From positions 84,590-148,589 of the forward strand of contig JABHWZ010000002.1 of the NCBI GenBank assembly GCA_018657525.1: a stretch of DNA of 64,000 nucleotides, read 5' to 3'. A model generated the notes under the pieces. That model searched no databases and was not told where the DNA came from. It worked only from the letters and a program-made list of their open reading frames with translations. Below are positions 7,375-22,155 of this stretch, piece by piece. Position 1 is the first letter of the stretch; every line of letters begins with the position of its first letter. Both the position numbers and the translations under genes were made by a program. The stretch comes from an archaeon. GTDB lineage: Archaea; Nanobdellota; Nanobdellia; Pacearchaeales; GW2011-AR1.

Positions 7375-7890
7375 TTATTTTTTGTCTTTACTTTCAGATT
7401 TTTTCTTAGAATCTTTTTCAACAACTTTCTTATCTTCTTTCTTTGTTTCAGATTTCTTAATAACTTTTTCCTTTACAACTGGTAAAATTATTTTTCCACC
7501 AGCTTTCTCAATTTTTTGAATTGCTGATTTTGATGCCTGGAAAGCTGTAATTTCAAATTTATCTTTGACTTCTCCCCCACCTAGAATTTTGTGCTTTGAT
7601 AAATTTATTTTCCCTGCTTTAAAGTCTAATTGAATCTGCCCAACATTAATTCTTTTTCGAGTATCTCTAGCTGTTGCTCTACTTGTAATTCCTTGTTTCC
7701 CAAAGTAATCGTTTCCATATAATTTTGTAATTAAAGTTTTTTTGTGATCTGCTCTCTTACCTGAACCAGCCATACCAACTCCCCCTCGATGTCCGTGTCC
7801 TTTTCGTTTCTTTCTTGCTCCGCCACCATGTGTTCCCATATTCTTCCCATGCATTCTCGACGACTTTGTTCGTTTTTTTATTTTTATCAT
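7375..7890 (-). CDS. rpl15: 50S ribosomal protein uL15 with a Lys-rich C-terminal extension
   Basis: SSRMHGKNMGTHGGGARKKRKGHGHRGGVGMAGSGKR is the uL15 signature. Confidence 0.9.
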   Translation of the reverse strand: MIKIKKRTKSSRMHGKNMGTHGGGARKKRKGHGHRGGVGMAGSGKRADHKKTLITKLYGNDYFGKQGITSRATARDTRKRINVGQIQLDFKAGKINLSKHKILGGGEVKDKFEITAFQASKSAIQKIEKAGGKIILPVVKEKVIKKSETKKEDKKVVEKDSKKKSESKDKK

Positions 7891-7891
7891 T

Positions 7892-8260
7892 TTACAACAT
7901 CCTCCTAATTAATTCATTAATTTTATCTTTGTGATTTCCTAAAACTCCTTTTTTAACTCCGAAATGTTTCTTTGAGTCAATTCCTCCTCGTGCTGGATGC
8001 AATCTAAAGAAAGGTTTTAGTTTTCCATCAACATCTTTTTTCCCTCGCTTTGCAACAAGTTCTTTGTAAGTAGCGTCGTCGATTTCTCCATAAGCAACAA
8101 AATCTCTCAATGTTTTAATCATTCCCATTTGTTCCTTTGAAGGTTTTTCTAAGATCACACAAACATATTTTCTTCTAAGTCGTAATCTATCTAGAGTTTC
8201 AGCTATATCTCTATTAATTCCAATCATTCCTTTAATTCGGATTACAGCTATTTTATTCAT
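7892..8260 (-). CDS. rpl30: 50S ribosomal protein uL30 (L7e)
   Basis: IAVIRIKG...TLDRLRLRRKY...GEI...INELIRRM is the archaeal L30 pattern. The position between S5 and L15 fits. Confidence 0.85.
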   Translation of the reverse strand: MNKIAVIRIKGMIGINRDIAETLDRLRLRRKYVCVILEKPSKEQMGMIKTLRDFVAYGEIDDATYKELVAKRGKKDVDGKLKPFFRLHPARGGIDSKKHFGVKKGVLGNHKDKINELIRRML

Positions 8261-9162
8261 TGTGCTCCCTCCACATTTGTTTTCTTTAAAGCATTAATAC
8301 AAGCTTTCGCTAAATTAAAAGTTGTCCTTTGCTGCCCATCTGTTCTACTATAGACATCTTTAATTCCTGCAAGTTTTAAAATTTTCTTTAATTCATTTGC
8401 AACAGCTAATCCAGTTCCCTGCGGAGCAGGTATCAAAGTAACTTTAACACTTCCAGATTTTCCAGTAACCTTAAATGGAACAGTATGTAATTCTGCACAA
8501 GCACAATCAAACGAAGCACAAGACCGTCCAATTTTCATAACATTCAGTTTTGCCTTTCTAATCCCTTTATCCCTCGCTGGCAAAGTTTCTTGAGACTTTC
8601 CAGATCCAATTCCAATGTGCCCATTTTCATCCCCAACTACTGCCATTGTAGAAAATGTAGGAACATTTCCTTCCTTAGTTTTTCTTTGAGTTTGTCTCCA
8701 CGCTCTTCTTTTTCCACCACCAAACTTTCCTTTAGCTTGTCCAATGGCAATTAAATCAGTTTTAACAATTAGCAAACAATCAATAATTTGCGGCTCTAAT
8801 ATTTTTTTATCTGCTTCTAAAATTTCATCAATACTTTTAACTTTCCCGTCCTTAACCTCTCTACCTAATTTTGTCTTTGGCTCCCATTCTGCAACAATCT
8901 CTTCCCGAGTTTTTTCATTTCTTCTTCTTCCTCTCCGCGGCCTTCCTTTCTTTTTATCTTCCTTATCCTTTTCTTCCATTTTAACAATCTTCTTTTCTTT
9001 CTCAGCTTTAGTAGATGGATCTTCTGCTTCTTTCTTAATTTCTTTTTCAATCATTTTTTCACTAACTGTTTCAGCATTCGCTGCTTTATCTAACGCTGTT
9101 TCTTCTGAAAGAGCGCCTTGCGCTTCAACAGTTTTTTTTACTTCTTCGTCTATTTTTGCCAT
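8257..9162 (-). CDS. rps5: 30S ribosomal protein uS5 with an N-terminal Lys/Glu-rich extension of about 95 aa
   Basis: The core FSTMAVVGDENGHIGIGSGKSQE...PAPQGTGLVA is uS5. The ATG at 9162 lies 1 nt after the rpl18 stop; the track start at 9198 would overlap rpl18. Confidence 0.9.
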   Translation of the reverse strand: MAKIDEEVKKTVEAQGALSEETALDKAANAETVSEKMIEKEIKKEAEDPSTKAEKEKKIVKMEEKDKEDKKKGRPRRGRRRNEKTREEIVAEWEPKTKLGREVKDGKVKSIDEILEADKKILEPQIIDCLLIVKTDLIAIGQAKGKFGGGKRRAWRQTQRKTKEGNVPTFSTMAVVGDENGHIGIGSGKSQETLPARDKGIRKAKLNVMKIGRSCASFDCACAELHTVPFKVTGKSGSVKVTLIPAPQGTGLAVANELKKILKLAGIKDVYSRTDGQQRTTFNLAKACINALKKTNVEGAQ

Positions 9163-9163
9163 T

Positions 9164-9664
9164 TTATTTACTTCCCTCAATCTTAGATTTAATTTCACTA
9201 AATGTTTTTGAAAAATCTTCTTTTAAGTTTTTCCCTTCAATTCTTTCCTGTTCTGGAAACGCTTCTTCCTTACATTGAATTTCTAATCCTGAATCAATAA
9301 GTCCTTTAATAAAAGAATAAACTTTTGTCTTGTAACTTGTTTTTTGCATTCCTAAATCCACAATCGGCGTTTCTAATTTCTTGTCTTGAATTTTTTTACC
9401 CATCAAATATCCAGTTAAATACGACGCTGGAATTGACTTTAAACTTCCTTTTGATTTTTCAGGCCACCCGCATTTTAACAACTCTTTTGAATTAAGAGTC
9501 ATTACTATTTTATCTTGAGCAGCTTCGCTTGTAACATATTGCGCAAGAGCAAACTTGTTTGATTTTCTAAAAACTAATCTCGGTTTCCCCCCCTTCAACA
9601 ATTTAAGTCTAACTAAATAATTCGTCTTCCCTTCTCTCCTTCTTCGTTTTGCTATTCTTTTCAT
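9164..9664 (-). CDS. rpl18: 50S ribosomal protein uL18 (L5e)
   Basis: KRRRREGKTNYLVRLKLLKGGKPRLVFRKSNK is the uL18 N-terminus. The ATG at 9664 forms an ATGA overlap with the upstream ORF. Confidence 0.9.
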   Translation of the reverse strand: MKRIAKRRRREGKTNYLVRLKLLKGGKPRLVFRKSNKFALAQYVTSEAAQDKIVMTLNSKELLKCGWPEKSKGSLKSIPASYLTGYLMGKKIQDKKLETPIVDLGMQKTSYKTKVYSFIKGLIDSGLEIQCKEEAFPEQERIEGKNLKEDFSKTFSEIKSKIEGSK

Positions 9665-9981
9665 TTTCTTAATCCCTCCCATATTTTTTGTAAATCTCTA
9701 TATCCTCGACATTTTTTTGTAAAGACTGGTTGAGCGGTTCTGTTTGTTCCAGGCAAAAAAAGACCTTCTTTATCAATTTCTGAAACTTCTCCTTTGTAAA
9801 TATCAAAACTGAAGACATCATCTCCCACCAAGTTTGATCTAGTTAAAACTAATTGACCTTCTTTAGGAGCATTCCCAAAGAAAAATTTTCTAAGTTCAGG
9901 ATTTCTTTCAACTCTCCCCATAAAACCTATATAATAATAATCTACTGAAGTATCATATACTCTCCCGACTTCAGCATTCAT
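9661..9981 (-). CDS. hypothetical protein (106 aa) intercalated between rpl19e and rpl18
   Basis: The ORF fills the junction exactly, with ATGA overlaps at both ends. It has no r-protein similarity and carries the SD GGGAGGG for rpl18 in its last codons. Confidence 0.65.
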   Translation of the reverse strand: MNAEVGRVYDTSVDYYYIGFMGRVERNPELRKFFFGNAPKEGQLVLTRSNLVGDDVFSFDIYKGEVSEIDKEGLFLPGTNRTAQPVFTKKCRGYRDLQKIWEGLRK

Positions 9982-10382
9982 TTTCTTAATCCTCCAATAT
10001 ACTCTTTCAAGTTTGCTTTACTTCTAAACATTTTATTTCTTATCCTCTTCCTAATTTCATTCACTTCTTCGATATTTAAGGCTTTTTGTTTTTTCAATTC
10101 ATTAACATAGGCTCTCAACTTCCGAGTCATAATCACATATTTCTTTTTTCTATCATTGACTTTCTTTCTAATATTCCCCGTACTTCTTTTAACCTTTGTC
10201 TTAATTTTTTTTCTTCCTTGAACATTCTTAATCAAAATTGCTCCATCCTTTAATAAATCCCGAATATCTTGCTTTGTAATGGCCTCTTTAATTTCTTCTA
10301 ATCGCGCTTCTACAAAATTAATTCTTGCTTTCCCCACATTTAATGTTCTTGCTGTTAATTCTTTCTTTTTCCTTAAGTTCAT
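9978..10382 (-). CDS. rpl19e: 50S ribosomal protein eL19
   Basis: LRKKKELTARTLNVGKARI...IKEAITKQDIRDL is the L19e pattern. Confidence 0.9.
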   Translation of the reverse strand: MNLRKKKELTARTLNVGKARINFVEARLEEIKEAITKQDIRDLLKDGAILIKNVQGRKKIKTKVKRSTGNIRKKVNDRKKKYVIMTRKLRAYVNELKKQKALNIEEVNEIRKRIRNKMFRSKANLKEYIGGLRK

Positions 10383-10795
10383 TTTTTATTATCCTTCGCT
10401 TTTTTAGTTGATTCTTTTTTCTCATTCTTTTTCAAAAACTTTTTTTCATTTAAATTTAAAATTTTAATTCCTAATTCTTTTGCTTTTTTAACCAATTCAA
10501 TCTTTTTCTTTTTTCCAATACTCGCCAAAGTAATCTCCTTACTTTTAACATTTTCTAATTCTTTCATATTTTCAATTGTTTCAATTTTAATTCTATCTGC
10601 CTCGCCTTTTTTATAACCAATTGCTACAACAGCGGGATATCCTTTTTTTTGCTCTCTCATTTTATTATCTCTTCCAGTTGGTCTTCGCCATTTTTGATTT
10701 TTCTTAGTTCTCTTTCCAAGTTTAACATATCGAGCTGCATCTCTTCTCAAAAATTTCGGCTTTTTCTTTTTAATAGTTTTATTTTCTTCAACCAT
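10379..10795 (-). CDS. rpl32e: 50S ribosomal protein eL32
   Basis: KPKFLRRDAARYVKLGKRTKKNQKWRRPTGRDNKMR is the L32e signature. Confidence 0.85.
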   Translation of the reverse strand: MVEENKTIKKKKPKFLRRDAARYVKLGKRTKKNQKWRRPTGRDNKMREQKKGYPAVVAIGYKKGEADRIKIETIENMKELENVKSKEITLASIGKKKKIELVKKAKELGIKILNLNEKKFLKKNEKKESTKKAKDNKK

Positions 10796-11338
10796 TTACA
10801 TTACCTTCCCGGCTTTATTTATAATGAAAATTCCATCCTGGAAAACACGCCTATCCTTATTTGTGATTCTCGTCGCTGTTTCTAAATTAGCCGCAGCTTG
10901 TCCTGCGATTTCTTTGTCTATCGAAGTAACTGTGATAAACTCTTTGTCAACTTTTATCTCAGCTCCTTTCGGAAGTCTTGCAATCCGTGGAATTTTTTCT
11001 CCTAAGAAATTTTTAATTTCCACATCGTCTTCTCTAATCGTAACAGTCATCGGGAAATGATGGAAACAAACCTTCAAGTTATATTCAAATTTTTCTTGCA
11101 CGCCCTTAATCATATTTTCAATATGCGCCCTAAATGTGTTAATTCTTTTCTTTTCTTTTTTAGTTGATTTTTTATTTCCTAAAGTAATTTTATTATCTTT
11201 AATCTCAAAATCTATTTTAGAAAGATTAAATTTCTTTTTATTTTCTCCTTCTTTACCCTTAACAATTAATTCAGAATCTTCTAATTTAACTTCCACTCCT
11301 TCTGGAATTTCAATTGTTTGAAAAATTTCTTTACGCAT
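10796..11338 (-). CDS. rpl6: 50S ribosomal protein uL6
   Basis: IEIPEGVEVKLED..LIVKGKEG and the two-domain repeat fit uL6. The position after S8 also fits. Confidence 0.9.
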   Translation of the reverse strand: MRKEIFQTIEIPEGVEVKLEDSELIVKGKEGENKKKFNLSKIDFEIKDNKITLGNKKSTKKEKKRINTFRAHIENMIKGVQEKFEYNLKVCFHHFPMTVTIREDDVEIKNFLGEKIPRIARLPKGAEIKVDKEFITVTSIDKEIAGQAAANLETATRITNKDRRVFQDGIFIINKAGKVM

Positions 11339-11339
11339 T

Positions 11340-11573
11340 TTATTCTAAATCTCCTTTTAGATAAGTCCTAAATCTTATATTAAAATCCTCAATTTGTTCA
11401 CCGCTCAAATAACGATTACAAACATTGCTAGCTTTAATATATTCTCCAATTATTGCAGGTATTTGGCAATCAATGCTTATTCGACGATCTAAGTGGATCA
11501 TCTCGCTATGAAACTTTTCTAATTTTGCTTCCATTATACTTGCTGCAGCATCTCTAAGTCCCATTTTACACAT
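11340..11573 (-). CDS. hypothetical protein (77 aa) intercalated between rps8 and rpl6
   Basis: There are 1-nt gaps on both sides when started at the ATG at 11573. The SD AAGGAG for rpl6 sits in its last codons. Confidence 0.6.
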   Translation of the reverse strand: MCKMGLRDAAASIMEAKLEKFHSEMIHLDRRISIDCQIPAIIGEYIKASNVCNRYLSGEQIEDFNIRFRTYLKGDLE

Positions 11574-11574
11574 T

Positions 11575-11955
11575 TTAATAAAAGTATGCAATTAAGCACC
11601 CTCCAATTCCTTCTTCTTGAGCTTCTGTATGAGTCATTAAACCTTTATTTGTAGAAACAATAACTACTCCCATATTTCTCGACGGCAGATATCTTCTTCG
11701 ATAATTTTCAATCTGATCTTTATCAACAGTAAATCTCGGCTTGATTGATTTACAATCCATTAAATTACCAATTTCTATTTCCAGAGTTTTTTCCTTCGGA
11801 TTAATTTTATATTTTTTAATTGCTCCTTCTTGCTTCATAATCTTCAAAACTTCAATTAATACATTCGAAATCCGCTTCACTACAATTATATCTTTTCTAG
11901 CTTTCTTTGCATTCCTAATCATATTCAACGCATCCGCAACAGTATCATGTGACAT
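11575..11955 (-). CDS. rps8: 30S ribosomal protein uS8
   Basis: DTVADALNMIRNAKKARK...VVIVSTNKGLMTHTEA...GIGGCLIAYFY is the uS8 pattern. Confidence 0.9.
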   Translation of the reverse strand: MSHDTVADALNMIRNAKKARKDIIVVKRISNVLIEVLKIMKQEGAIKKYKINPKEKTLEIEIGNLMDCKSIKPRFTVDKDQIENYRRRYLPSRNMGVVIVSTNKGLMTHTEAQEEGIGGCLIAYFY

Positions 11956-11956
11956 T

Positions 11957-12313
11957 TTATTCTTGACCTCCTCTACTCATTTGAGTTTTTCTTGAAAGGA
12001 TATCTGCCCCCATTCTTTCATATTGTTCTTGCGGGATACCATATTTGCTTTTAGCCAGAGTTATTGCTTCATCCAATTCTCTTAATTTTCCCCTAAGCTT
12101 TGAACGATCATAACCTACTAGGTAATCTTCTAATTCTGATAGATATTTTATTTTTCCTGGTAAACTCCATCCACTAACTGTTTCTCCATTTAAATGCTCG
12201 AGTGCTTGAGTAATTACTAAGTCCTTCTGTCCGCTTAAATCTTTTGCGGTATTTGTCAATGCTGCTATGAACCTTCTATCTAATTCACTTAATTGTTTCG
12301 TTTCAGTTGTCAT
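11957..12313 (-). CDS. hypothetical protein (118 aa) intercalated between rps14 and rps8
   Basis: There are 1-nt gaps on both sides. The last codons AGA GGA GGT CAA GAA provide the SD GGAGGT for rps8. Confidence 0.65.
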   Translation of the reverse strand: MTTETKQLSELDRRFIAALTNTAKDLSGQKDLVITQALEHLNGETVSGWSLPGKIKYLSELEDYLVGYDRSKLRGKLRELDEAITLAKSKYGIPQEQYERMGADILSRKTQMSRGGQE

Positions 12314-12314
12314 T

Positions 12315-12545
12315 TTAACTATATTTTGTAAAGCCGATTTCTACTGCTAACTTTCGAAAACAGTGTCGACATAAATTTAATCCGTATGAGTTTACTCTTG
12401 CACCAAACCGACCGCAGTTCTCGCATTTTTGCGCAGCAACTCCAAACTTTCTGTCCCTTGGTTTATTATGTTTCAAAAACTTTGCTTTTATTGCTGGTTT
12501 ATTATCCAACTGCGTCATTACTTTTTTCCAATCGCTTGCTGTCAT
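12315..12545 (-). CDS. rps14: 30S ribosomal protein uS14 (zinc-binding type) with an N-terminal extension
   Basis: CENCGRFGARVNSYGLNLCRHCFR is the C-x2-C...C-x2-C uS14 core. Confidence 0.85.
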   Translation of the reverse strand: MTASDWKKVMTQLDNKPAIKAKFLKHNKPRDRKFGVAAQKCENCGRFGARVNSYGLNLCRHCFRKLAVEIGFTKYS

Positions 12546-12880
12546 TTTACTAATCTTGCCTCCCCATATTTTTTTATCAATTTTCTCCCTTCAAAAGTTT
12601 CAGAGTCAAATCTTTCTATTATAATACCCTCTTGATAATTATCTATCGCGAACCTTCCAGCGTAAGCAATTACTTCTTCAATAGGCACCATCCATTGTGT
12701 CCAATTCCTTCCACAAATCCCTTTATCTCCCAATAAAATCATTGTTCCTTCTTCATCCCTTTCTAACAACATAGCATCAAACCTTCCGTCGATGTAATCT
12801 CCTTGATCTAGTACTGGGAAGACGTCCCCGACTTGTAAATTTTTTACTTGTTCCATATTTTCTAATGTTTCATATTTCAT
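12542..12880 (-). CDS. hypothetical acidic protein (112 aa) intercalated between rpl5 and rps14
   Basis: ATGA overlaps at both ends. The SD GGGGAGG for rps14 sits in its last codons. Confidence 0.65.
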   Translation of the reverse strand: MKYETLENMEQVKNLQVGDVFPVLDQGDYIDGRFDAMLLERDEEGTMILLGDKGICGRNWTQWMVPIEEVIAYAGRFAIDNYQEGIIIERFDSETFEGRKLIKKYGEARLVK

Positions 12881-13407
12881 TTTAGTTTACCAATAAATTC
12901 GATTCCGAATTCTTTCTCCATAAATTTAATTATTTCTTCTCGAGTTATAACTTGTCTCTTTGGAATTTTTCCCCGCTTAACTTTCTTCAATTTAACTCTT
13001 CTTCCAGTTCTTTTAAAAGCTACTGTTACATCAAATCCAAGAATTCCTAAATCTCTTTGATATTCAACTCCCGGGATTTCAATATATTCTTTAATCCCAA
13101 ACGAAAAATTGTTCTCGCTGATTTGCTTTTTCTTTAGTTTGTTTTCAATAGCAATAAATAATCTTTTCAATAATTCCTCCTTACCCTTTCTAATTGTAAC
13201 AACTGCCCCAATTTCTAAACCCGGTCTAACTCCTAATGAAGGAATTCTTTTATTTGATTTCGTCTTCGCTGGTTTTCTGTTTGTAACAAGCTGTAAAAGT
13301 TTATATCCCTTCTCAAGATTATCCCCAATCCCGCCTACACTCAACACAACTTTTTCCATCTTAATCGTTCTCATTACATTTTCTGTTTTTATTTTTTCGT
13401 CTGCCAT
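12877..13407 (-). CDS. rpl5: 50S ribosomal protein uL5
   Basis: NVMRTIKMEKVVLSVGGIGD...GILGFDVTV is the uL5 pattern. Confidence 0.9.
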   Translation of the reverse strand: MADEKIKTENVMRTIKMEKVVLSVGGIGDNLEKGYKLLQLVTNRKPAKTKSNKRIPSLGVRPGLEIGAVVTIRKGKEELLKRLFIAIENKLKKKQISENNFSFGIKEYIEIPGVEYQRDLGILGFDVTVAFKRTGRRVKLKKVKRGKIPKRQVITREEIIKFMEKEFGIEFIGKLK

Positions 13408-13408
13408 T

Positions 13409-14059: not shown

Positions 14060-14407
14060 TTACAATCCTGCCTCCGTTAGTTTTGGATCTAATTTTTCAT
14101 ATTCTGCGCTTCCTTCAAGAAAGCTTCCATTTAAGATATTTTGTCCCATCCAAGAATCCTCTTTATATTCTAAAACGCTAATACTTTTCGGATAAGCAGG
14201 TATAATCCCTCCCAATATTTCAAGACTCCCTGTTGCAGGTCTTCTGACAAGGGTATATAATTTTTTCTCCTCTAAATCAACCTTTGCAACTAATTCGCGT
14301 GACGCACATGGCTTTAATAAAACATCTTTAATCATTATATCATGTAGAGTTCTATCTAAAGAATCCCTCCATGGGTCTATTATTAATTCATGCCCGTTTC
14401 GTATCAT
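14060..14407 (-). CDS. hypothetical protein (115 aa) intercalated between rpl24 and rps4e
   Basis: ATGA overlap with the rpl24 stop and 0-nt gap to the rps4e ATG. The SD GGAGG for rps4e sits in its last codons. Confidence 0.65.
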   Translation of the reverse strand: MIRNGHELIIDPWRDSLDRTLHDIMIKDVLLKPCASRELVAKVDLEEKKLYTLVRRPATGSLEILGGIIPAYPKSISVLEYKEDSWMGQNILNGSFLEGSAEYEKLDPKLTEAGL

Positions 14408-14860: not shown

Positions 14861-15262
14861 TTAATAAACCACTGAAGCGATTTTTGCAACTTGCGGCCAT
14901 CGCTCTAGAACCTCCCTTGCAATTGGTCCTTTAATCTGAGTTCCTTTTGGATTGCCTTTTTCATCTTTCAAAATAGCAACTGCATTATCTTCAAATGCCA
15001 CTCGCTCTCCGCTGTTTCTTCTCCATGATTTTTTCTGTCGAATTATTACTGCGTCAAAAACTTTCCCTTTCATGTCAGGCACGCCCTTCCGGATTGAAAC
15101 CTTTACCCAATCTGCAATTTTAGCACTTACCTGTTTAGATTTTTTAGCTTTAGCCTTTTTAACTGAAACAATTTTAACCATCTTCGCCCCACTATTATCT
15201 GCCGCGGGCATAATTGCACCGAGGTTAAAAGCTGAAGTTGTTCGCGCGCTTATTGCTTTCAT
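14861..15262 (-). CDS. rpl14: 50S ribosomal protein uL14
   Basis: ADNSGAKMVKIVSV...VFDAVIIRQKK..RR..G..V.FEDNA is the uL14 pattern. Confidence 0.95.
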   Translation of the reverse strand: MKAISARTTSAFNLGAIMPAADNSGAKMVKIVSVKKAKAKKSKQVSAKIADWVKVSIRKGVPDMKGKVFDAVIIRQKKSWRRNSGERVAFEDNAVAILKDEKGNPKGTQIKGPIAREVLERWPQVAKIASVVY

Positions 15263-15537
15263 TTTACATCCTCCCCTAATAATCCCTCAACTCTTAAATG
15301 ATTCCATGCTCTACTTCTTCTAATTTCTGCACTTTCACATCCTCCAATGCACCCACATCCTATTTGATATTCTCTAATGGTCACTTTTTCTCCATCCGAG
15401 TAAGCAAATATATTTGTTCCACATTGAGGATTTTGGCATCCAAATAAAACTCCTTTTTGCCCACTCACTAAAATATTCTGTGGGACATATGGATTAGATT
15501 CAAACCTGTGAATATCTTGAGGCCTTATTGCTTTCAT
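15259..15537 (-). CDS. hypothetical Cys-rich protein (92 aa) intercalated between rps17 and rpl14
   Basis: ATGA overlaps at both ends. Its first 14 nt are identical to the rpl14 start (MKAI). CQNPQCG...CGCIGGC is a possible metal site. The SD GGGGAGGA for rpl14 sits in its last codons. Confidence 0.65.
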   Translation of the reverse strand: MKAIRPQDIHRFESNPYVPQNILVSGQKGVLFGCQNPQCGTNIFAYSDGEKVTIREYQIGCGCIGGCESAEIRRSRAWNHLRVEGLLGEDVK

Positions 15538-15971
15538 TTTTTCTCTTCTCCAGATTTATCTTCTTTATTCAGTGTTTCACGATGCTCATGTGAAATGGAT
15601 TTAATAAACACAAAATGGATAATCTTACTCAAAGGTCGGCACTCTTGAATCTGAACTAAGTCCCCAATATTTACTGACGCTTCTAAGCATATTGGCAATC
15701 TAGCATGAAGTTTGGTTCTTGATTTAGTATATCTTTCATATTTTCTTACGTAAACTGTTCTTTCAAGTTCAATTACAATTCTTTTTTTAAATTTCTTGGT
15801 AACTGTTCCTTCAAAGATTCGCCCATGAGTTTTTAATTTTCCATGAATATTACAATCTATATCTTTGCATTCTTTCAGAGTCTCTGCTACTTTTGCTCCC
15901 TTCCGTGCTTCGCGATGCCTATGCGCAATGGCGCTTTCTGTTTTTTTCTTTGTCATTTTCTTTTCTGTCAT
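15534..15971 (-). CDS. rps17: 30S ribosomal protein uS17 with terminal extensions
   Basis: GRIFEGTVTKKFKKRIVIELERTVYVRKYERY...IGDLVQIQECRPLSK is uS17. The ATG at 15971 has AGGTGA 13 nt upstream; the alternative ATG at 16040 would overlap sui1 by 11 nt. Confidence 0.85.
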   Translation of the reverse strand: MTEKKMTKKKTESAIAHRHREARKGAKVAETLKECKDIDCNIHGKLKTHGRIFEGTVTKKFKKRIVIELERTVYVRKYERYTKSRTKLHARLPICLEASVNIGDLVQIQECRPLSKIIHFVFIKSISHEHRETLNKEDKSGEEKK

Positions 15972-16029
15972 TTTTGTGTATGTCACCTTTTTTTCCGGGC
16001 CACCTCGAAGAGGTTCTCGTGACCTTTGG

Positions 16030-16332
16030 TTATTCTTCATCTACGGAATCTTCATCAAATCCCATCTTTCCTAAAAGAGGTTTTATTCTCTTTCGATGAT
16101 CTCCTTGGAGTTCAATTCTGCCATCTTTGTAAGTCCCTCCACAAGCTAACTCATTTTTCAGAGCCTTTGCGGTTTTCTTTACATCGACGCTGTTGTCGAA
16201 CCCACTAACCACAGTAACAATCTTTCCGTACCTTTTCTTGTCGGTTGTTACCTTTATTCTTTGTGAACTTTTTACTATCTGCTCACACACACATGCTTGC
16301 TCAGGCAAGCCACATTTTGGACATATTTCCAT
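16030..16332 (-). CDS. sui1: translation initiation factor aIF1 / SUI1
   Basis: CPKCGLPEQACVCE zinc knuckle plus the SUI1 core (KRYGKIVTVVSGF...LKNELACGGTYKDGRIELQGDHR). Confidence 0.9.
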   Translation of the reverse strand: MEICPKCGLPEQACVCEQIVKSSQRIKVTTDKKRYGKIVTVVSGFDNSVDVKKTAKALKNELACGGTYKDGRIELQGDHRKRIKPLLGKMGFDEDSVDEE

Positions 16333-16334
16333 AT

Positions 16335-16520
16335 TTATTGTGTCCCAACTCCAGTTTTATTAGAGGTGAGTATTCTCGCAATTATTTTTCTGATTTCTTT
16401 GTTTTTAGTACTTCCTGTTTTAGTCGAGCTTGACTTTGATTTTATTAATTCCATTTTCAACTCTTTAATCTTTTTTTCCTTATCTTTCTCGCTTAGTTTT
16501 TGTACTTCTTTGAATTTCAT
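16335..16520 (-). CDS. rpl29: 50S ribosomal protein uL29
   Basis: KEVQKLSEKDKEKKIKELKMELIK...IRKIIARILT is the uL29 pattern. Confidence 0.85.
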   Translation of the reverse strand: MKFKEVQKLSEKDKEKKIKELKMELIKSKSSSTKTGSTKNKEIRKIIARILTSNKTGVGTQ

Positions 16521-16690
16521 TTTATTTCTCCTTTCATTTCTTTTTCTAACTTTGCCATTTTTAGTTGATGAGTTTTAAGGCTCTCTTCTAAAACCTTTCT
16601 ACCTCCAGAAACAGGTATTTCTCCTAAATACTTTTGACATGTCGTTATTGCATGTTTACATTGTGTATATTCTTCTTGATGGTCTTTCAT
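16517..16690 (-). CDS. hypothetical protein (57 aa, MKDHQEEYTQCKHAITTCQKYLGEIPVSGGRKVLEESLKTHQLKMAKLEKEMKGEIK) intercalated between rps3 and rpl29
   Basis: Not in the ORF track (under 60 aa). I translated it by hand: 58 codons, with ATGA overlaps to both the rps3 stop and the rpl29 start. The SD AAGGAG for rpl29 sits in its last codons. Confidence 0.55.
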   Translation of the reverse strand: MKDHQEEYTQCKHAITTCQKYLGEIPVSGGRKVLEESLKTHQLKMAKLEKEMKGEIK

Positions 16691-17394
16691 TTCTTTGCCT
16701 CCTCGACTTTTTTAGTTGCTTTCTTTCTTGTGCTCTTCTTTTTCTTAGGTTTTAAACTTACATCTTTTAGTTTCATATTTTCTTTTAACTTATTAATCAT
16801 GGCCTCATCAATAACTACTTTATCTGTCAGTTTTACATAAGGGGATAAAATTGCAACTTTAATTCCTACAACTCCTGGTTTAGTCATCGCAACTGCTTGC
16901 GCCCTATCTACTAACTTTGCACTCTCTCCCGCTTTTTTCAAATATCCCTGAGCAAATCTCCATGTTTTTGCCCTAGTGCTCGGAAGCTTTCCACTCAATT
17001 TAAGTTCTGCACCCAAGGCTCCAGCTTTCATTATTGTCTCCAATGCTCTATAAGCTATAACTTTAAATTTCAAAGGTCCAACTCTTTCCAGACCCAACGC
17101 AATTTCATCCGCCATTAATTGTGCATCAAGCTCAGGCTCAGTTATCTCCTTTATTTCCACATGAGGATTAGCTAATTTGAATTCCTTTTTCAAAAATTCA
17201 GTTAATTCTCCAATTCTCTCACCCTTTCTACCAATAACTAATCCAGGTTTATGCGTCGATACAATAATTTTTTCACCAACCGGAGTGTATTCAATTTCAA
17301 CTTTGCTGGCCTTACCCTTTCCAAGCGATGTTTTAACATATTCTTTAACTGCGAATTCTTCTTTTTTCAAAGCTACTGATTTTCTTTCTTCCAT
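16687..17394 (-). CDS. rps3: 30S ribosomal protein uS3 with a Lys-rich C-terminal tail
   Basis: KH domain (VIGRKGERIGELTEFLKKEF) plus the uS3 C-terminal domain. Confidence 0.95.
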   Translation of the reverse strand: MEERKSVALKKEEFAVKEYVKTSLGKGKASKVEIEYTPVGEKIIVSTHKPGLVIGRKGERIGELTEFLKKEFKLANPHVEIKEITEPELDAQLMADEIALGLERVGPLKFKVIAYRALETIMKAGALGAELKLSGKLPSTRAKTWRFAQGYLKKAGESAKLVDRAQAVAMTKPGVVGIKVAILSPYVKLTDKVVIDEAMINKLKENMKLKDVSLKPKKKKSTRKKATKKVEEAKK

Positions 17395-17395
17395 T

Positions 17396-17965
17396 TTATT
17401 TCTTTGCCCCCTTATTTACTTTCTTTTCTGTTACTACAATTTTAAGATGAGTTCTTTTTCTTTTTATTCGCCCAAATCTTCCAAAAGGTCGAGCCGCTTT
17501 ATTTGCAACAGCCTCGGTGATTATCGGTGCTTCAAGTCCATTAACATTTGCATTGCCTCGTAAACCCTTTAAGATTATAATAAATTCTCCTGATGCTTTT
17601 CCTGGAAATCTGCCTGACATGATTCCTTTACCCTTTCTATGTGGAATTTCCCCAATCATTGGAACTGCTTTTTTCTTCCGTATAACTAATTCCAAATCTT
17701 CCATTGCTTTTTCAATAGTTTTACCTTTAATAAATTTACAAATAAATTTTGCATCCAAAGTTGAAATTGGCACGCTAGTTGAATTAACTTCTGCTTTATC
17801 TCGCTTGACTATTTTTTGTTGAACCGGTTTCTTTGTTTCTTTTTTAACTTCTTCAACTTTCTTATCCTTTTTTATTTCTGTAACTGGAACCCTTGCCCCA
17901 GCTTTTGATTGCTTCTTCATTGTCTTCGAAGTTTTCTGTTCTGGGTTATAATTTTTTTCTGTCAT
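17396..17965 (-). CDS. rpl22: 50S ribosomal protein uL22 with an N-terminal Lys-rich extension
   Basis: AKFICKFIKGKTIEKAMEDLE...GRFPGKASGEFIIILKGLRGNA is the uL22 pattern. Confidence 0.9.
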   Translation of the reverse strand: MTEKNYNPEQKTSKTMKKQSKAGARVPVTEIKKDKKVEEVKKETKKPVQQKIVKRDKAEVNSTSVPISTLDAKFICKFIKGKTIEKAMEDLELVIRKKKAVPMIGEIPHRKGKGIMSGRFPGKASGEFIIILKGLRGNANVNGLEAPIITEAVANKAARPFGRFGRIKRKRTHLKIVVTEKKVNKGAKK

Positions 17966-18020
17966 TGTGTTTTTTGTTCTGCAAAAAATGCAGTTAAAAT
18001 GTTTGCCATTTTGTCTTTAT

Positions 18021-18416
18021 TTAGTGTTTACTTAAAGTTTTTGTCCCCTTTGTAGACCCAACTCCTGCTTTTCCATGGTTAACTCTTCCTCTTGTCGGAG
18101 AGAATTCCCCAAAATAACGTCCAAGCATTTCAATAGTTATATCAGTTGGAATAAATTTATTTCCATTATGAATTTGTATTCTCATTCCAACTAAATCTGG
18201 AACAACAATCAAATCTCTTAAATGAGTTCTGATCTGTTTACCATTTGCTACTTTTTTCTTAGCTCTTGCCACAAAATTTTCTATATCTTGGAAATTTCTC
18301 AAAACCGTTCTCCTTTCTCTCGACTTCAAAAGTTTCGCAAATTCTCTTACATCTAGAGTTTTCAGTTCTTCAATTTTCTTTCCTCGAAATGTTAATTCCT
18401 TTTTTCCTAATACCAT
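18021..18416 (-). CDS. rps19: 30S ribosomal protein uS19
   Basis: IRTHLRDLIVVPDLVGMRIQIHNGNKFIPTDITIEMLGRYFGEFSPTR is uS19. The ATG at 18416 lies 1 nt after the upstream stop; the track start at 18530 runs through the neighbouring ORF. Confidence 0.9.
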   Translation of the reverse strand: MVLGKKELTFRGKKIEELKTLDVREFAKLLKSRERRTVLRNFQDIENFVARAKKKVANGKQIRTHLRDLIVVPDLVGMRIQIHNGNKFIPTDITIEMLGRYFGEFSPTRGRVNHGKAGVGSTKGTKTLSKH

Positions 18417-18417
18417 T

Positions 18418-18669
18418 TTAATCTGTTCCTTGCCTCCAATCCTTAGCTGAGCGATAATTTCCATCATACAAACATTTTTTACATCCTTGATCACTACTAG
18501 AGTATGTGCAATAGTGAGAAATTGCTCCACTAGATTTCATATATGGGGCCCAAGTTTCTTTTCTCCCTTTTTGAGCAGGGCAATCTTTTTCAAATTCTCT
18601 TAACATTCCCATTACTTTTATTGCTTCACTATTATCTTCTTCTGTGCTTGTCGTTGTTTTTTTTACCAT
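18418..18669 (-). CDS. hypothetical Cys-containing protein (83 aa) intercalated between rpl2 and rps19
   Basis: There are 1-nt gaps on both sides. The SD GGAGG for rps19 lies near its 3' end. Confidence 0.6.
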   Translation of the reverse strand: MVKKTTTSTEEDNSEAIKVMGMLREFEKDCPAQKGRKETWAPYMKSSGAISHYCTYSSSDQGCKKCLYDGNYRSAKDWRQGTD

Positions 18670-18670
18670 T

Positions 18671-19381
18671 TTATTTTTTCTTACCTGTTCTTTTCGGCCT
18701 GATTAATCCAACTTTCTGTCCAGGTGCTGAATTTCTTTTTGCAATCCTTGATTTAGGAACCTTTCCTCTTCCCGAACCAAACGGATGATCAATTGCATTC
18801 ATTTTACAAGCAGATGTCCTCGGCCATAATTTATTTTTTGACTTTTTCATGTGATGTTTTTTACCCGCTTTCAATATCGGTTTGTCTAGTCTCCCGTGAC
18901 CTGCAACTACTCCTACAATAGCCCGACATTTTCCATTTAACTTCTTTTCCTTTTTAGAAGGCAGAAGCACATAGATTGAATCTCCCACAATTCTACTTAT
19001 CATTGCAGAACTTCCTGCACTTTTCATAAGCTTCCCACCGTCGCCAGTTCTTGATTCAATGCAATGAATTGGAGTTTTAACCGGGATATCTGCAACCTTC
19101 ATAATGTTCCCATCTTTAACTTCTTTACTTTCAAAATTAATCTTTTGCCCTTCTTGCATTCCCTTAAATGCCGGAACATAAAAATAACTTTTTTTATTTT
19201 CTTTAATATATTCAATTTTTGCTAACGGTGCAGTGTGCGCCTTCGACGCCAATAATTCAACAACAATCCCTTCTCCAGATAATCGCGGCGGATATTGAAT
19301 CTTGTAAATAAACGATTTCTTGTTTACTCTATAAGTTTTACTTCCTTTCCCACGTCTTTGCATAATAATTCTTTTTCCCAT
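18671..19381 (-). CDS. rpl2: 50S ribosomal protein uL2
   Basis: GGKLMKSAGSSA...VAGHGRLDKP..KAG...MNAIDHPFGSGRG is uL2. Confidence 0.95.
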   Translation of the reverse strand: MGKRIIMQRRGKGSKTYRVNKKSFIYKIQYPPRLSGEGIVVELLASKAHTAPLAKIEYIKENKKSYFYVPAFKGMQEGQKINFESKEVKDGNIMKVADIPVKTPIHCIESRTGDGGKLMKSAGSSAMISRIVGDSIYVLLPSKKEKKLNGKCRAIVGVVAGHGRLDKPILKAGKKHHMKKSKNKLWPRTSACKMNAIDHPFGSGRGKVPKSRIAKRNSAPGQKVGLIRPKRTGKKK

Positions 19382-19382
19382 C

Positions 19383-19655
19383 TTACATTAATCTCCTTTG
19401 CTTTATTGTTCTTGGAAATCCATATTCTCTCGCGCCTTGCCTTTTGATATATTTCACGTCTACATATTTCATCTGGCCTTCTACAGTAAATATAATCTCT
19501 CTCCGGAGTGGTGCTAAACAATGTCTTATCGGGCTATTTTGCCTACGCTCTTTTATAACAATTCCCTCTCCTACTTCCGGGATTAATACAAGAGCACCTT
19601 CTTCTTTTGCAGTTCTCATTTCAATAGTTGTCATATTTCCAATATTTTTCTCCAT
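19383..19655 (-). CDS. hypothetical Arg-rich protein (90 aa) intercalated between rpl23 and rpl2
   Basis: TAATG overlap with the rpl23 stop and a 1-nt gap to rpl2. The SD AAGGAG for rpl2 sits in its last codons. Confidence 0.6.
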   Translation of the reverse strand: MEKNIGNMTTIEMRTAKEEGALVLIPEVGEGIVIKERRQNSPIRHCLAPLRREIIFTVEGQMKYVDVKYIKRQGAREYGFPRTIKQRRLM

Positions 19656-19912
19656 TATATAATACCTATTTTAGTCGCCAGGTCAATTGCTGGAAACTCC
19701 TTTTTTAATTTAACGTAAGTGTATTTTTTATTATTTCTAATTGATGTTCTAACCTTTTCAACCTTAACTTCAAATAATTCCTCAACTGTTTTCTTAACTT
19801 CGTCTTTTGAAAATTTCGGACTGACTGTGAAAGTTATAACATTATCTTTTTCAATTAACATAACTGCTTTTTCCGTCGTTATTGGTTTAAGTTGAACTCC
19901 GATTGTTTTCAT
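19655..19912 (-). CDS. rpl23: 50S ribosomal protein uL23
   Basis: KPITTEKAVMLIEKDNVITFTVSPKFSKDEVKKTVEELFEVKVEKVRT is uL23. Confidence 0.9.
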   Translation of the reverse strand: MKTIGVQLKPITTEKAVMLIEKDNVITFTVSPKFSKDEVKKTVEELFEVKVEKVRTSIRNNKKYTYVKLKKEFPAIDLATKIGII

Positions 19913-20157
19913 TTTTTATTTTTCCCTATCTGTAAAAGACTTTTTAATTCTGATGTTCGTTCGAAAACTAAAATATCTGTCCCATGGACTTCCAAGATCC
20001 TAGAATTAAATCGATACCCGCTATCAGTTCCCTTTAATCCAAAACAATGCCAAATTGTATCTTTATATGAGTATTCTTTAAAGTATTCTGCTTCTACAAC
20101 TAAGTTTTCATGTTGAGCATCAATTAAAGTATACATTGAATCAAGACTTAATGTCAT
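19909..20157 (-). CDS. hypothetical protein (82 aa) intercalated between rpl4 and rpl23
   Basis: ATGA overlaps at both ends; no recognisable motif. Confidence 0.6.
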   Translation of the reverse strand: MTLSLDSMYTLIDAQHENLVVEAEYFKEYSYKDTIWHCFGLKGTDSGYRFNSRILEVHGTDILVFERTSELKSLLQIGKNKK

Positions 20158-20975
20158 TTCTTAGCCTCCACTTTTTTAATTCCCTTGAACTTATTATTTA
20201 ATTCTTCAACTGCTTTTTCAGTATAAACTGTTAATCTTCCAAGACCACCATTTGCTAAATTATCCACTCCCAAGTTCCCAGCTTGAACAACATCTATAAT
20301 TGTTGATTTTACTTTTTCGTCTTTACCTAAAACTAAAAGCATACCTGCAGATTTTTTGTACTTTCTTCCTCTTCGTGAACCTCTTCCTGCTCGAACTTTC
20401 TTAGTTTGAAGTGCAATTTCAAATAATGTTTCTCCCAAAATTTTCTTTAAACTATCTTTCAATTCTTTTGCTTTCAAAGAACTTAATTTTGAATCAACAA
20501 TAAACGGAACCTGTTTTTCTAATTTTTCTATTCTTTGATATTTGTGCTGGATATATTCTACATTCGCTGTCGCGCTTAACGCAGATTCTAAAGCTATTTT
20601 CATTTCCTTTTTATTTATTTTTAAAATATTAATCATTGAAGTTGGTTTTGGTGGATGGGCTCTTCGTCCTCCACGAGTATTCGGTGATGTGGCCCCAACC
20701 CAATTAAATTGTGTTCCTCGTCGTGACATTTGTTTTCTTGGAACTCTTGAAGCTCCTCGCCCGTATCCTGATTTCCAAACATGTCTTCTACGAATTAATT
20801 TTCCCGACGCCGACGCTTGAAGTCCTGCCATAGGTGATGGCCCATAAGGTTGCTTTGTTTTCTTAACTTCCAAAACTTTCGCAACAATATCTTCTCGAAC
20901 TTTTTTAGAAAAATAACTAGGACTATCCATTTCCTTTCCTTGCTTTCCGTCTATTTGATATATTTTAATTTTCAT
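20154..20975 (-). CDS. rpl4: 50S ribosomal protein uL4 (L1e)
   Basis: QPYGPSPMAGLQASA...GRGASRVPR...GGRRAHPPK is archaeal uL4. Confidence 0.9.
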   Translation of the reverse strand: MKIKIYQIDGKQGKEMDSPSYFSKKVREDIVAKVLEVKKTKQPYGPSPMAGLQASASGKLIRRRHVWKSGYGRGASRVPRKQMSRRGTQFNWVGATSPNTRGGRRAHPPKPTSMINILKINKKEMKIALESALSATANVEYIQHKYQRIEKLEKQVPFIVDSKLSSLKAKELKDSLKKILGETLFEIALQTKKVRAGRGSRRGRKYKKSAGMLLVLGKDEKVKSTIIDVVQAGNLGVDNLANGGLGRLTVYTEKAVEELNNKFKGIKKVEAKK

Positions 20976-21205
20976 TTTCTTTTAAAATCTTCTTGTTCAA
21001 GATATAAAATATCTCTAGTAACGTGAACTCCTTCACTGCAAGCAATTCCTTTTCCGTCAGAGGCCACACCTAAATAAGCACTTCTTTCCCCCTCTAATTG
21101 GGAAATTACTCCCATGCATTTTTTCATATCCCCATTTATATCAATCTCTGTTTTGTATGCAGGACAAGTTTTTGCACAACTACATAGGATTCCTGCTATT
21201 TTCAT
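20972..21205 (-). CDS. hypothetical Cys-rich protein (77 aa) intercalated between rpl3 and rpl4
   Basis: ATGA overlaps at both ends. Contains a CSCAKTCP...C...C pattern. Confidence 0.6.
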   Translation of the reverse strand: MKIAGILCSCAKTCPAYKTEIDINGDMKKCMGVISQLEGERSAYLGVASDGKGIACSEGVHVTRDILYLEQEDFKRK

Positions 21206-22155
21206 CGCAACGCCACCAGCTCAAAAGCTTTTTTATTTTGTTTTTTAGTCTCTCTCAACGGAGCAGTAATTAATAATTGTCTTTTTGCCGATCCTTGCAC
21301 ACTTCCTGCAACAACTAAATATTCATTATGAACATTTCCATAATTTTTAATATTTGCAATCGGTTTATCATCTGCTTTGGCCAAGTCAATGATTTTATTG
21401 TTGTAAACCACCCTCGTAAACATACCCAGCTGACCAGCCATCGGAGTTCTAAAAGTTACACGAGCCGGATGCCACGGAGCAATTGAACCAACTTTTCTCA
21501 GCCCTTTTTCTGATTTATGAAATCTAAGTTTAATACCAAATCTTTTTACTGGACCTGAAAAACCTTTACCTTTTGTTAAACCTCTAACATCTACCAACTT
21601 TCCTACCTCAAAAATATCTGAAACCGCAATTTCCTTTGTCAAATTTTCTTTAATCCATGCCATTTTTTCAGTGATATCTTGGCCTGTCAATCCAATTTCT
21701 ATTAAATCTGGTGTTTTTTTAATTTCAGTTTTTTTAACTTGAGAATAAGCAATCACCGCAACATCATCATACTCCTCAATTTTAACATCATCTAATTTTG
21801 CTTTATTTTGTTTAGGAATTTTAACTTTCTTTTTTAGTTCTTTATCTAAGTTTTCAGAAAGAATATCTTTCGCCACTTTTTTGTTTTTATAAAATCTTAC
21901 AGAAAAAATCTTTAATGTTGGACACTCGAGAATAGTTACCGGGACAACAATTTCCTTGCCCTTTGTCATTGAATCTTCTGTGCTGTCTTTAACATAAGCC
22001 GAAGCCATTCCAGCTTTATAACAAATGAATCCTTTAAGTCCTTTAGAATTTTCAGATGGAATCGCACTCCAGTTAACTCTAGGCAAAGCTTTTCTGGCTC
22101 GCTTCCGCGGCCAAAATTGCAAACTTCCTCTTCGTGGTCTTGATAATGTTGGCAT
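21202..22155 (-). CDS. rpl3: 50S ribosomal protein uL3
   Basis: RPRRGSLQFWPRKRA...GFICYKAGM...TKGKGFSGPVKRFG is archaeal uL3. Confidence 0.95.
   Translation of the reverse strand: MPTLSRPRRGSLQFWPRKRARKALPRVNWSAIPSENSKGLKGFICYKAGMASAYVKDSTEDSMTKGKEIVVPVTILECPTLKIFSVRFYKNKKVAKDILSENLDKELKKKVKIPKQNKAKLDDVKIEEYDDVAVIAYSQVKKTEIKKTPDLIEIGLTGQDITEKMAWIKENLTKEIAVSDIFEVGKLVDVRGLTKGKGFSGPVKRFGIKLRFHKSEKGLRKVGSIAPWHPARVTFRTPMAGQLGMFTRVVYNNKIIDLAKADDKPIANIKNYGNVHNEYLVVAGSVQGSAKRQLLITAPLRETKKQNKKAFELVALR

Follow-up and report, generated by a model that had tools for sequence, protein, structure and literature searches.

How an operon can gain an unrelated gene at one junction after another while keeping its order intact is the question raised by a ribosomal protein (r-protein) locus in an AT-rich DPANN genome whose relatives carry the labels Pacearchaeota, Woesearchaeota or Nanoarchaeota. 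Few prokaryotic gene arrangements are as conserved as the S10-spc r-protein cluster, which is routinely taken to be inviolate, its use as a block of phylogenetic markers being one example. The stretch of DNA analysed here (64,000 nt, the window) contains the L3-to-L15 part of this cluster as a super-operon (7375-22155, minus strand; 14,781 nt) composed of 23 conserved genes and eleven inserted open reading frames (ORFs), which we designate X1 to X11. The evidence set out below makes it probable that X1-X11 are genuine lineage-specific accessory genes, promoterless "junction cassettes" that were inserted ORF-precisely at stop-start junctions and belong to a fast-turnover, lineage-wide population.

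The conserved genes follow the order L3-L4-L23-L2-S19-L22-S3-L29-SUI1-S17-L14-L24-S4e-L5-S14-S8-L6-L32e-L19e-L18-S5-L30-L15, with SUI1 positioned between L29 and S17. A preceding interpretation made from the letters alone (the sequence-only reading) had reported eleven extra ORFs wedged into the junctions of this intact series, and all eleven were found on the minus strand at the positions it gave. Junction geometry was read base by base, using the gene starts of S19, S14 and L18 as called in indexed annotations. Overlaps of the ATGA type on both sides are formed by X1 (20972-21205; L3/L4 junction; 77 residues, Cys-rich), X2 (19909-20157; L4/L23; 82 residues), X5 (16517-16690; S3/L29; 57 residues), X6 (15259-15537; S17/L14; 92 residues, Cys-rich), X8 (12542-12880; L5/S14; 112 residues) and X11 (9661-9981; L19e/L18; 106 residues). 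Gaps of 1 nt on both sides are seen for X4 (18418-18669; L2/S19; 83 residues with a four-Cys motif), X9 (11957-12313; S14/S8; 118 residues) and X10 (11340-11573; S8/L6; 77 residues), while X3 (19383-19655; L23/L2; 90 residues) has TAATG on the left and a 1-nt gap on the right, and X7 (14060-14407; L24/S4e; 115 residues) has ATGA on the left and a 0-nt gap on the right. Each of the 22 X boundaries is therefore either an overlap (ATGA, 4 nt, or TAATG, 1 nt) or a gap of 0-1 nt, the geometry that the sequence-only reading had described, and the eleven ORFs together encode 1,009 extra residues.

Frames of this length are not expected to stand open by accident. Off-frame stops occur at a frequency of 0.09-0.11 per codon in window DNA, which puts the chance of a single open frame of 57-118 codons at ~1e-3 to 1e-5, and all eleven are open on the operon strand; with a stop density of ~0.1 per codon, eleven open same-strand frames cannot be attributed to chance, as had been argued from the letters. 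The GC content at the three codon positions (GC1/GC2/GC3) is 0.44/0.37/0.22 in the X ORFs and 0.42/0.34/0.24 in the r-protein genes. The net charge of the X products ranges from -8 to +7 versus +7 to +41 for the r-proteins, which bears out the earlier remark that they are not Lys-rich. The same interleaved order is present on contigs of 211-288 kb with an identical arrangement from separate assemblies at NCBI (GCA_018653175.1, contig JABIAR010000001.1), JGI (3300072015) and ENA (ERZ23491529, ERZ4200979), and over the 6.3 kb of a separate low-coverage contig there are 2 nt of difference. In a public sequence collection, 63 indexed blocks contain the exact X8 protein, and an indexed protein search with X8 only returned a 99% variant as its sole match.

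The products resemble little else, including one another. Pfam returned zero matches for X1-X10 at E values up to 1, PADLOC returned none for ten X ORFs (X1-X4 and X6-X11) at E up to 0.1, the NCBIfam scan of the X ORFs gave zero family matches, and the PHROG scan gave nothing significant (best E 0.007); X11 scanned against PHROGs, PADLOC and NCBIfam likewise gave zero matches. An exhaustive phmmer search of the concatenated X proteins against 1.84 billion cluster representatives (~15 billion proteins) recovered only the query itself for seven of the ORFs and only a truncated 91% variant for X9. No homologue was found in this search for X2, X3, X5, X7 or X9, and none outside the species for X1. 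Homologues were recovered for X10 (two, 58-60% identical) and X8 (five, 34-52% identical), together with one weak match for X4 (P0137; 34% identity, E 1e-4) that is a free-standing gene and does not lie within any r-protein operon. An all-versus-all BLASTP comparison detected no similarity among the eleven, so that the sequence-only reading was right in calling them mutually unrelated, and the possibility it raised that they are known proteins was not borne out. X1-X11 thus appear, as far as these searches reach, to be orphan or near-orphan genes.

Several origins were considered and set aside on these grounds. The X ORFs do not represent a known r-protein family, given the empty Pfam and NCBIfam scans, their absence from the nearest relatives (L087 and L086, described below) and the lack of a homologue outside the species for eight of the eleven. 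A viral origin was not supported, given the absence of a significant PHROG match, of viral-contig relatives in the X8 and X10 families and of a significant BFVD fold match, nor was a role in anti-phage defence or as toxin-antitoxin, given the empty PADLOC result for the ten ORFs scanned and the absence of a toxin-antitoxin domain in the Pfam search of X1-X10. Read-through or an alternative genetic code fusing the X ORFs to r-proteins is excluded by the -4/-1/+1 geometry, since no X ORF shares its reading frame with either neighbour. Comparison of X ORF DNA with the window (blastn, tblastx) gave A-rich noise only, with one exception: the first ~50 nt of X8 (MKYETLENMEQVKNLQ) match an internal segment of L32e (IKIETIENMKELENVK) over 51 nt at 78% DNA identity and in the same frame (12839-12873 versus 10550-10584). 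This match could be the remnant of a fragment duplication, or coincidence, and was judged insufficient to make duplicated or frame-shifted neighbour genes a general origin of the X ORFs.

The extent of the phenomenon was surveyed by scanning species-representative genomes with the L14 of the window, which recovered 80 related operons (Pacearchaeota/Woesearchaeota); once the 23 conserved genes had been placed on these, 1,522 junctions could be scored. These junctions are mostly -4, -1 or +1, and 191 of the 1,522 hold 150-1000 nt. For inserts of this length, the median fraction of the gap covered by the best ORF is 1.0 on the same strand and 0.46 on the opposite strand. About 18 of the 191 are L18/S5 gaps, many without a junction-filling ORF, which may be due to an S5 N-terminal extension or to the start call; a "clean" set of 103 inserts has both ends no more than 8 nt from the neighbouring genes. 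Twelve of the 80 operons are free of inserts, and the highest load, eleven, is that of the window. In an all-versus-all comparison 139 of 186 insert ORFs are singletons, and among the 149 longest inserts Pfam identifies a minority as ordinary enzymes or regulators (RNase_T, B3_4, HAD, HD, MazG, NUDIX, GNAT and HTH families). Some of the other insert families in relatives are clearly constrained, and the insert population is probably a mix of functional proteins and weakly constrained ORFs. Junction inserts are a lineage-wide phenomenon in Pacearchaeota/Woesearchaeota.

One enzyme-encoding resident of these operons is comparatively stable. A gene of ~210 codons for an RNase_T-family exonuclease occupies the L4/L23 junction in at least eight relatives, at 43-61% identity (L016:3607-4260, L031:5244-5876 and L035:1964-2611, and also in L045, L049, L061, L066 and L068), and every one of the eight RNase_T inserts of the survey lies at this junction.

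Inserts turn over fast and change junction. The S4e protein closest to that of the window among 5.8 billion proteins is 70% identical, and the nearest relatives (S4e 69-70% identical) carry no insert (L087) or one (L086). Flanking synteny in L087 is that of the window both upstream and downstream, its operon measures 11,750 nt versus 14,781 nt, and the lengths of the X ORFs add up to this difference. Even closer pairs differ almost completely: L030 and L058 have core r-proteins that are 91% identical, yet share one of eleven occupied junctions, and L051 and L052, at 84% identity, also share one of eleven. Homologues are found at different positions. The X8 family lies at L5/S14 in the window, at S17/L14 in L004 and L091 and at L24/S4e in L053 and L092; the X10 family lies at S8/L6 in the window and at L14/L24 in L036, L055, L088-090 and L215, where the relatives of X10 (P0131 and P0132, 58-60% identical; L036 and L055, weaker) are all placed. 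A family of ~160 residues sits at L3/L4 or L19e/L18 in relatives and outside the operon in the window (1609-2091), and a homologue of an L082 insert is found at window 42163-42531, again outside the operon. B3_4-like inserts of 233 residues occupy L5/S14 in L058 and L19e/L18 in L070, with 69% identity over the 233 residues and clear DNA homology from the start codon to a few nucleotides before the stop.

The ends of the inserted units follow a simple grammar. When empty and filled alleles are compared in a near-isogenic pair, the inserted unit is exactly "ATG...stop", with one additional base in the TAAnATG type, and the junction type is repeated on both sides of the insert (ATGA...ATGA, TAATG...TAATG or TAAnATG...TAAnATG). 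Left and right junction types of insert ORFs are strongly associated when the 80 loci are taken together (counts 34/5/9/20; Fisher p = 2.6e-6). Most X ORFs of the window keep, on both sides, the type seen at the empty junction of relatives; this comparison is least clear at L3/L4 and L5/S14, where relatives vary. Short direct repeats mark two of the inserts: X6 is flanked by a perfect 17-nt repeat (AAAATGAAAGCAATAAG) that is a copy of the L14 start and was recovered independently by a repeat finder, and the last ~20 nt of X11 (TATGGGAGGGATTAAGAAAATGA) duplicate the 3' end of L19e (TATTGGAGGATTAAGAAAATGA). An anchored junction score of at least 16 was reached by 5 of 113 cognate pairs versus 0.6% of controls, and in the ranking of the 113 X11 stands highest and X6 in the top five. 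General target-site duplication was not supported, as neither 3'-end similarity (p = 0.13) nor a shift in the anchored local score (p = 0.2) is significant overall; the upper tail alone is enriched. Inverted repeats flanking the X ORFs were not found, and short flanking direct repeats are present at X6 and X11 only.

Inserts also tend to supply the next gene with a Shine-Dalgarno (SD) motif. A strong SD precedes the next r-protein gene after 43% of inserts versus 30% of empty junctions (p = 0.014), and at S14/S8 it is found in four of four filled and none of 32 empty junctions. In the window the 3' end of X9 gives S8 the motif GAGGAGGT, at a junction that has no strong SD where it is empty. 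A GGAG-type motif lies at the end of nine of the eleven X ORFs, with AGGAG for L2 in the 3' end of X3 and GGAGG in that of X7.

These observations are best accommodated by the junction-cassette explanation, which can be drawn as the following sequence of events. A cassette would have neither promoter nor terminator nor spacer of its own and would be transcribed by read-through of the operon. Ribosomes ending on the upstream r-protein gene would reinitiate at the overlapping or adjacent ATG of the cassette, and the next r-protein gene would in turn be reinitiated at the cassette stop, often aided by an SD within the last ~20 nt of the cassette. Insertion itself would occur by illegitimate or microhomology-type recombination at the common stop-start motif, would leave both sides with the junction type that was there before (ATGA, TAATG or TAAnATG) and would in some cases duplicate a 17-24-nt part of the junction. 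As the operon is essential, selection is expected to remove every insertion that breaks coupling, and the precise ends of the inserts may be precise because such uncoupling is lethal. Once coupled, a cassette could be lost only through an equally precise deletion, and the conserved r-protein genes on either side could serve as homology arms for its spread between relatives. Termination-reinitiation coupling of ATGA and short-gap pairs has been demonstrated experimentally in archaea (PMC6728339, PMC10666635). The arrangement expected of coupled pairs, co-directional genes at -4/-1 or with a gap of a few nucleotides, is present at 22 of 22 X boundaries and at most of the clean inserts in relatives. 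The products of X1-X11 would be heterogeneous accessory proteins and are unlikely to be core ribosomal proteins.

A number of points weigh against this explanation. Co-transcription and translational coupling of the X ORFs are predicted from junction geometry. Clear junction duplications accompany only ~4% of inserts, the cassettes share no terminal repeats, and neither a recombinase nor a transposase appears in the Pfam search of X1-X10 or among the Pfam families listed for the 149 longest inserts, so that the mechanism of insertion is a conjecture. Several small insert families of other genomes have a ratio of nonsynonymous to synonymous differences (pN/pS) of ~0.8-0.9 and equal divergence at the three codon positions, as products that are weakly constrained or non-functional would. 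The 1,009 extra residues, if made at r-protein levels, look costly for cargo without benefit. Finally, every located member of the X8 family (five) and of the X10 family (six) lies within an r-protein operon; this exclusive residence could indicate a ribosome-linked function and not generic cargo, and the sampling of 80 loci is biased to the operon.

The last point leads to the explanation that competes best, namely that the inserts encode lineage-specific ribosome-associated proteins (assembly factors, r-protein chaperones, hibernation factors or regulators) that are kept where they are for co-production with r-proteins. Besides the operon-only residence of X8 and X10, it can draw on the constraint that these two families are under. 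Comparison of X10 with its homologue at L14/L24 gave pN 0.19 and pS 0.50, and comparison of X8 with four homologues gave pN 0.24-0.40 and pS 0.65-0.78; with pN well below pS in both, a check for purifying selection that had been proposed along with the ORFs came out in favour of selection at the protein level. A predicted model of the X8 family (predicted local distance difference test, pLDDT, 79.7; predicted template-modelling score, pTM, 0.77) shows a small beta-barrel followed by a C-terminal helix, whereas X10 was modelled with a pLDDT of 63, too low for a fold search. The fold search with the X8 model returned no significant neighbour; its best matches, eL6, RimM and RimP (E 0.3-0.8) and a viral NusG-like protein (E 0.17), would suit a ribosome-associated role, but none of them reaches significance, and the small beta-barrel is a common fold. 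The X products are neutral to acidic, like Yar1, Acl4 and Sqt1, dedicated chaperones of basic r-proteins.

Against a ribosome-associated role stand the nearest relatives, with zero or one insert, the 12 of 80 operons with none, and the eight of eleven X proteins for which representatives of 15 billion proteins yielded no homologue beyond the species. Nor are the families bound to a particular r-protein neighbour, and other insert families are found outside the operon too or are generic enzymes. We consider this explanation unlikely on balance, and the roles of lineage-specific r-protein or dedicated chaperone that the sequence-only reading had offered are accordingly poorly supported: X8 and X10 are not tied to one neighbour, and some insert families have members outside r-protein operons. 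Its third suggestion, selfish cassettes that target junctions, fared better in part. Junction-targeting cassettes fit best with the patchy distribution, the fast turnover and the presence of homologues at different junctions, but the word "selfish" does not sit well with the constraint on X8 and X10.

If junction cassettes are the correct description, their movement might be driven by an active, dedicated mobility system, such as a trans-acting recombinase or a reverse-transcriptase-based mechanism that recognises stop-start junctions in the manner of integron cassettes or homing elements. Relocation between junctions with ORF-precise ends, the duplicated junction motif, the target-site-like duplications of 17-24 nt that flank X6 and X11, and the multi-copy junction elements of relatives (a mini-ORF with up to four copies per operon and at least 120 metagenome matches, and a hairpin repeat in L057, both described below) are what such a system would leave. 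However, no integrase, transposase or homing-nuclease domain was found in the Pfam search of X1-X10 or among the Pfam families listed for the 149 longest inserts, no such domain appears in the Pfam lists covering ~2.5-64 kb of the window, shared terminal or inverted repeats are absent, there is no room for an attC-like site, and the duplications are rare and of variable extent. We regard a mobility system of this kind as improbable. A broader proposal is that in Pacearchaeota/Woesearchaeota the stop-start junctions of highly expressed operons are the recombination sites of a dedicated cassette system, one lacking attC and with no integrase found in this analysis, by which ORFs with ATGA/TAAnATG ends are actively captured, shuffled and exchanged, with the MKANQRFSFI mini-ORF as the minimal cassette or coupling module and the r-protein super-operon as the main gene-acquisition platform of the lineage; this too is doubtful, and we put it forward as speculation.

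The mini-ORF was noticed in the gap lengths of relatives, whose histogram peaks at 46 and 52 nt. Gaps of 46-52 nt, sometimes ~70 nt, hold a conserved mini-ORF of 17-25 codons that begins MKANQRFSFIQ/R; in one example (ATGAAAGCAAATCAAAGATTTTCATTCATCC...GGAGGTnATTTTGAATGA) it encodes MKANQRFSFIQ and further residues. It overlaps both neighbours by ATGA and carries an SD, GGAGG, near its 3' end. An nhmmer search counted 53 copies among the 80 loci and none in the window; every copy lies within the r-protein operon and on its coding strand, with few exceptions at a junction, and an operon has at most four. Examples are L060:7555-7613, L072:6466-6524 and 2420-2479, L087:9051-9097 and 13138-13196, four copies each in L012 and L016, and copies in the metagenome loci L095-L174. 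An unbiased pattern scan of metagenomes gave at least 120 matches, and ~40 of the 85 examined lie in S10-spc junctions; the remaining ones examined lie upstream of L10, L35Ae, RNA polymerase subunits, an NTP-transferase, phosphoglycerate mutase, SerRS and other genes. The mini-ORF has no Rfam family and, in a test for conserved RNA structure, gave a weak RNAalifold consensus (-1.3 kcal/mol, one covarying pair); synonymous changes within FSFI hint at conservation on the level of the peptide. It looks like a minimal portable module for translational coupling and in this respect supports junctions being colonised by insertable units. In L057 a non-coding hairpin repeat of ~100 nt (TTTCAAAATCTCAGCTGTGCCTTCGCACAGATCGCCATTAAAGATTTTGAAA...TTTTCTGTCT) occupies at least four r-protein junctions (3316-3417, 5890-5991, 6959-7060 and 8060-8161, with a shorter related segment at 1-63 and 5307-5369). 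It ends with an SD and the ATG for the next gene and resembles a miniature inverted-repeat transposable element (MITE) or a repetitive extragenic palindromic (REP) element.

It is also possible, though we think it rather improbable, that most X ORFs are non-functional "translated spacers", in which only openness is selected, a premature stop uncoupling the downstream gene, while the sequence drifts into orphans. The high share of singletons (139 of 186), the eight of eleven X ORFs that lack a homologue outside the species, the small insert families with pN/pS of ~0.8-0.9 noted above and the way in which 3' ends are shaped by the need of the downstream gene for an SD motif are all in keeping with drift of this sort. 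The codon periodicity of the X ORFs is nevertheless strong, at the GC1, GC2 and GC3 values of 0.44, 0.37 and 0.22 given earlier, and has not relaxed to a GC3-like composition; X8 and X10 are constrained and the X8 family model folds confidently; and many inserts of relatives are bona fide enzymes under constraint. A spacer, moreover, has no need of 57-118 codons, and the mini-ORF at 17-19 codons is a much shorter coupler.

An artefact of assembly, binning or gene calling (a chimeric contig, misassembled repeats or spurious ORFs), which the status of the genome as a metagenome-assembled genome (MAG) and the shortness of some ORFs such as the 57-residue X5 might bring to mind, is already effectively refuted by the identical arrangement on long contigs from separate NCBI, JGI and ENA assemblies, the low-coverage contig with its 2-nt difference in 6.3 kb, the same phenomenon in dozens of unrelated MAGs and frames that are open far beyond chance.

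Interleaving in the window is wider than had been claimed, as it is also seen in two other r-protein operons. At 34917-37606 (minus strand) the order is L1, an ORF of 82 residues, L10, ORFs of 109 and 69 residues, and L12. The 82-residue ORF (36724-36972, minus strand) lies between L1 and L10 with 1-nt gaps, and the ORFs of 109 residues (35435-35764) and 69 residues (35224-35433) together fill 35224-35764 (minus strand) between L10 and L12/P1, where all gaps are 1 nt. At 47381-49531 (plus strand) the order is SecE, an ORF of 162 residues, Spt5, an ORF of 144 residues and L11; the 144-residue ORF (48399-48833, plus strand) overlaps Spt5/NusG on one side and L11 on the other by 1 nt each, and the 162-residue ORF has larger gaps. 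None of these five ORFs has a Pfam match. A tRNA gene (49558-49630, plus strand) directly follows L11.

Other features of the window border on the super-operon or lie apart from it. The longest S5 ORF begins with GTG and overlaps L18, and its N-terminal extension of ~70 residues, rich in Glu and Lys (8980-9198, minus strand), accounts for the apparent 184-nt L18/S5 "gap" of the window; L18/S5 gaps of a similar kind are seen in many relatives. In the region 3417-7356, SecY (3417-4865, plus strand) is inverted relative to the operon, and three ORFs of 488, 199 and 90 residues without a Pfam match stand between it and L15. In L087 SecY directly follows L15 on the same strand, and in L086 the order is L15, a MutS_V protein of 501 residues and an inverted SecY. 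Three tandem paralogues of 121-124 residues (55920-57028, plus strand), 50-76% identical, with one hydrophobic segment each and separated by 1-nt gaps, sit downstream of an ORF of 650 residues without a Pfam match and are followed by a probable lipoprotein of 108 residues. A ParE-toxin/MazE-antitoxin pair (59981-60477, minus strand) adjoins an S-layer-like protein of 814 residues.

In this lineage, then, the conserved r-protein cluster behaves as a hot spot at which genes are gained, lost and relocated, with up to half of the junctions filled and an occupancy that is almost wholly different between genomes with 91% identical r-proteins. Should the cassettes be translated, as the geometry of their junctions implies, very small genomes would be making orphan proteins at r-protein levels, a large unexplained investment. 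The locus offers a natural experiment in promoterless expression of new genes, in the "lock-in" of insertions through coupling and in one source of DPANN orphan proteins, and the mini-ORF may prove to be a portable coupling module in its own right. Loci of this kind will be mis-handled by gene callers and marker-gene pipelines built on the assumption that r-protein genes are contiguous.

Among known systems, gene pairs that overlap and are translationally coupled (ATGA/TGATG; Huber et al. 2019, PMC6728339) have the stop/start geometry that is seen on both sides of the X ORFs, where it would be the means of expression; that work concerns existing neighbours and not foreign ORFs that recreate the coupling signal twice. 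Non-ribosomal passengers of the S10-spc cluster (RNase P Rpp29, SUI1, SecY, Adk and Cmk) are likewise embedded and co-transcribed in the super-operon, but they are ancient, shared across phyla and fixed in position, whereas the X ORFs are species-specific orphans with fast turnover and shifting positions. An insertion sequence (IS) element or MITE differs in that the X ORFs are similar neither to each other nor to the rest of the window and have no terminal inverted repeats. Free-standing homing-endonuclease genes (seg/mob of T-even phages), inteins and group I introns also occupy conserved essential loci, are patchy and can be lost only precisely, but the X units lie between genes and not within them, and no nuclease domain was found in the Pfam search of X1-X10 or among the first 25 of the 32 Pfam families listed for the 149 longest inserts.

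In functional terms the nearest analogues are phage morons and integron cassettes, and the defining features of these systems that were tested are lacking in the X ORFs. Morons are unrelated extra genes between neighbours of conserved order, present or absent between close relatives, as the X ORFs are; they typically have a promoter and terminator of their own and reside in viruses, whereas the X ORFs are cellular, have no intergenic space and yielded no viral relatives. Integron cassettes are promoterless single-ORF units, diverse and mostly without known function, expressed from the promoter of the host unit, variable and changing in position. An integron has the integrase IntI, a single attI site and the Pc promoter, and attC is an imperfect inverted repeat of ~57-141 nt at the 3' end of the cassette. 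The X ORFs, by contrast, leave no space for attC (0-1 nt or an overlap between ORFs), occupy eleven junctions inside an essential operon as against one attI site and would depend for their expression on translational coupling to essential genes; the IntI family is absent from the Pfam lists covering ~2.5-64 kb of the window. The sequence-only reading knew of no cluster interleaved in this way, and no description of interleaved r-protein operons in DPANN was found in the literature searched, which is not proof of novelty. Relative to known cassette-like accessory genes, what is new here is the location of the units, the grammar of their junctions and the means of expression that these junctions would provide.

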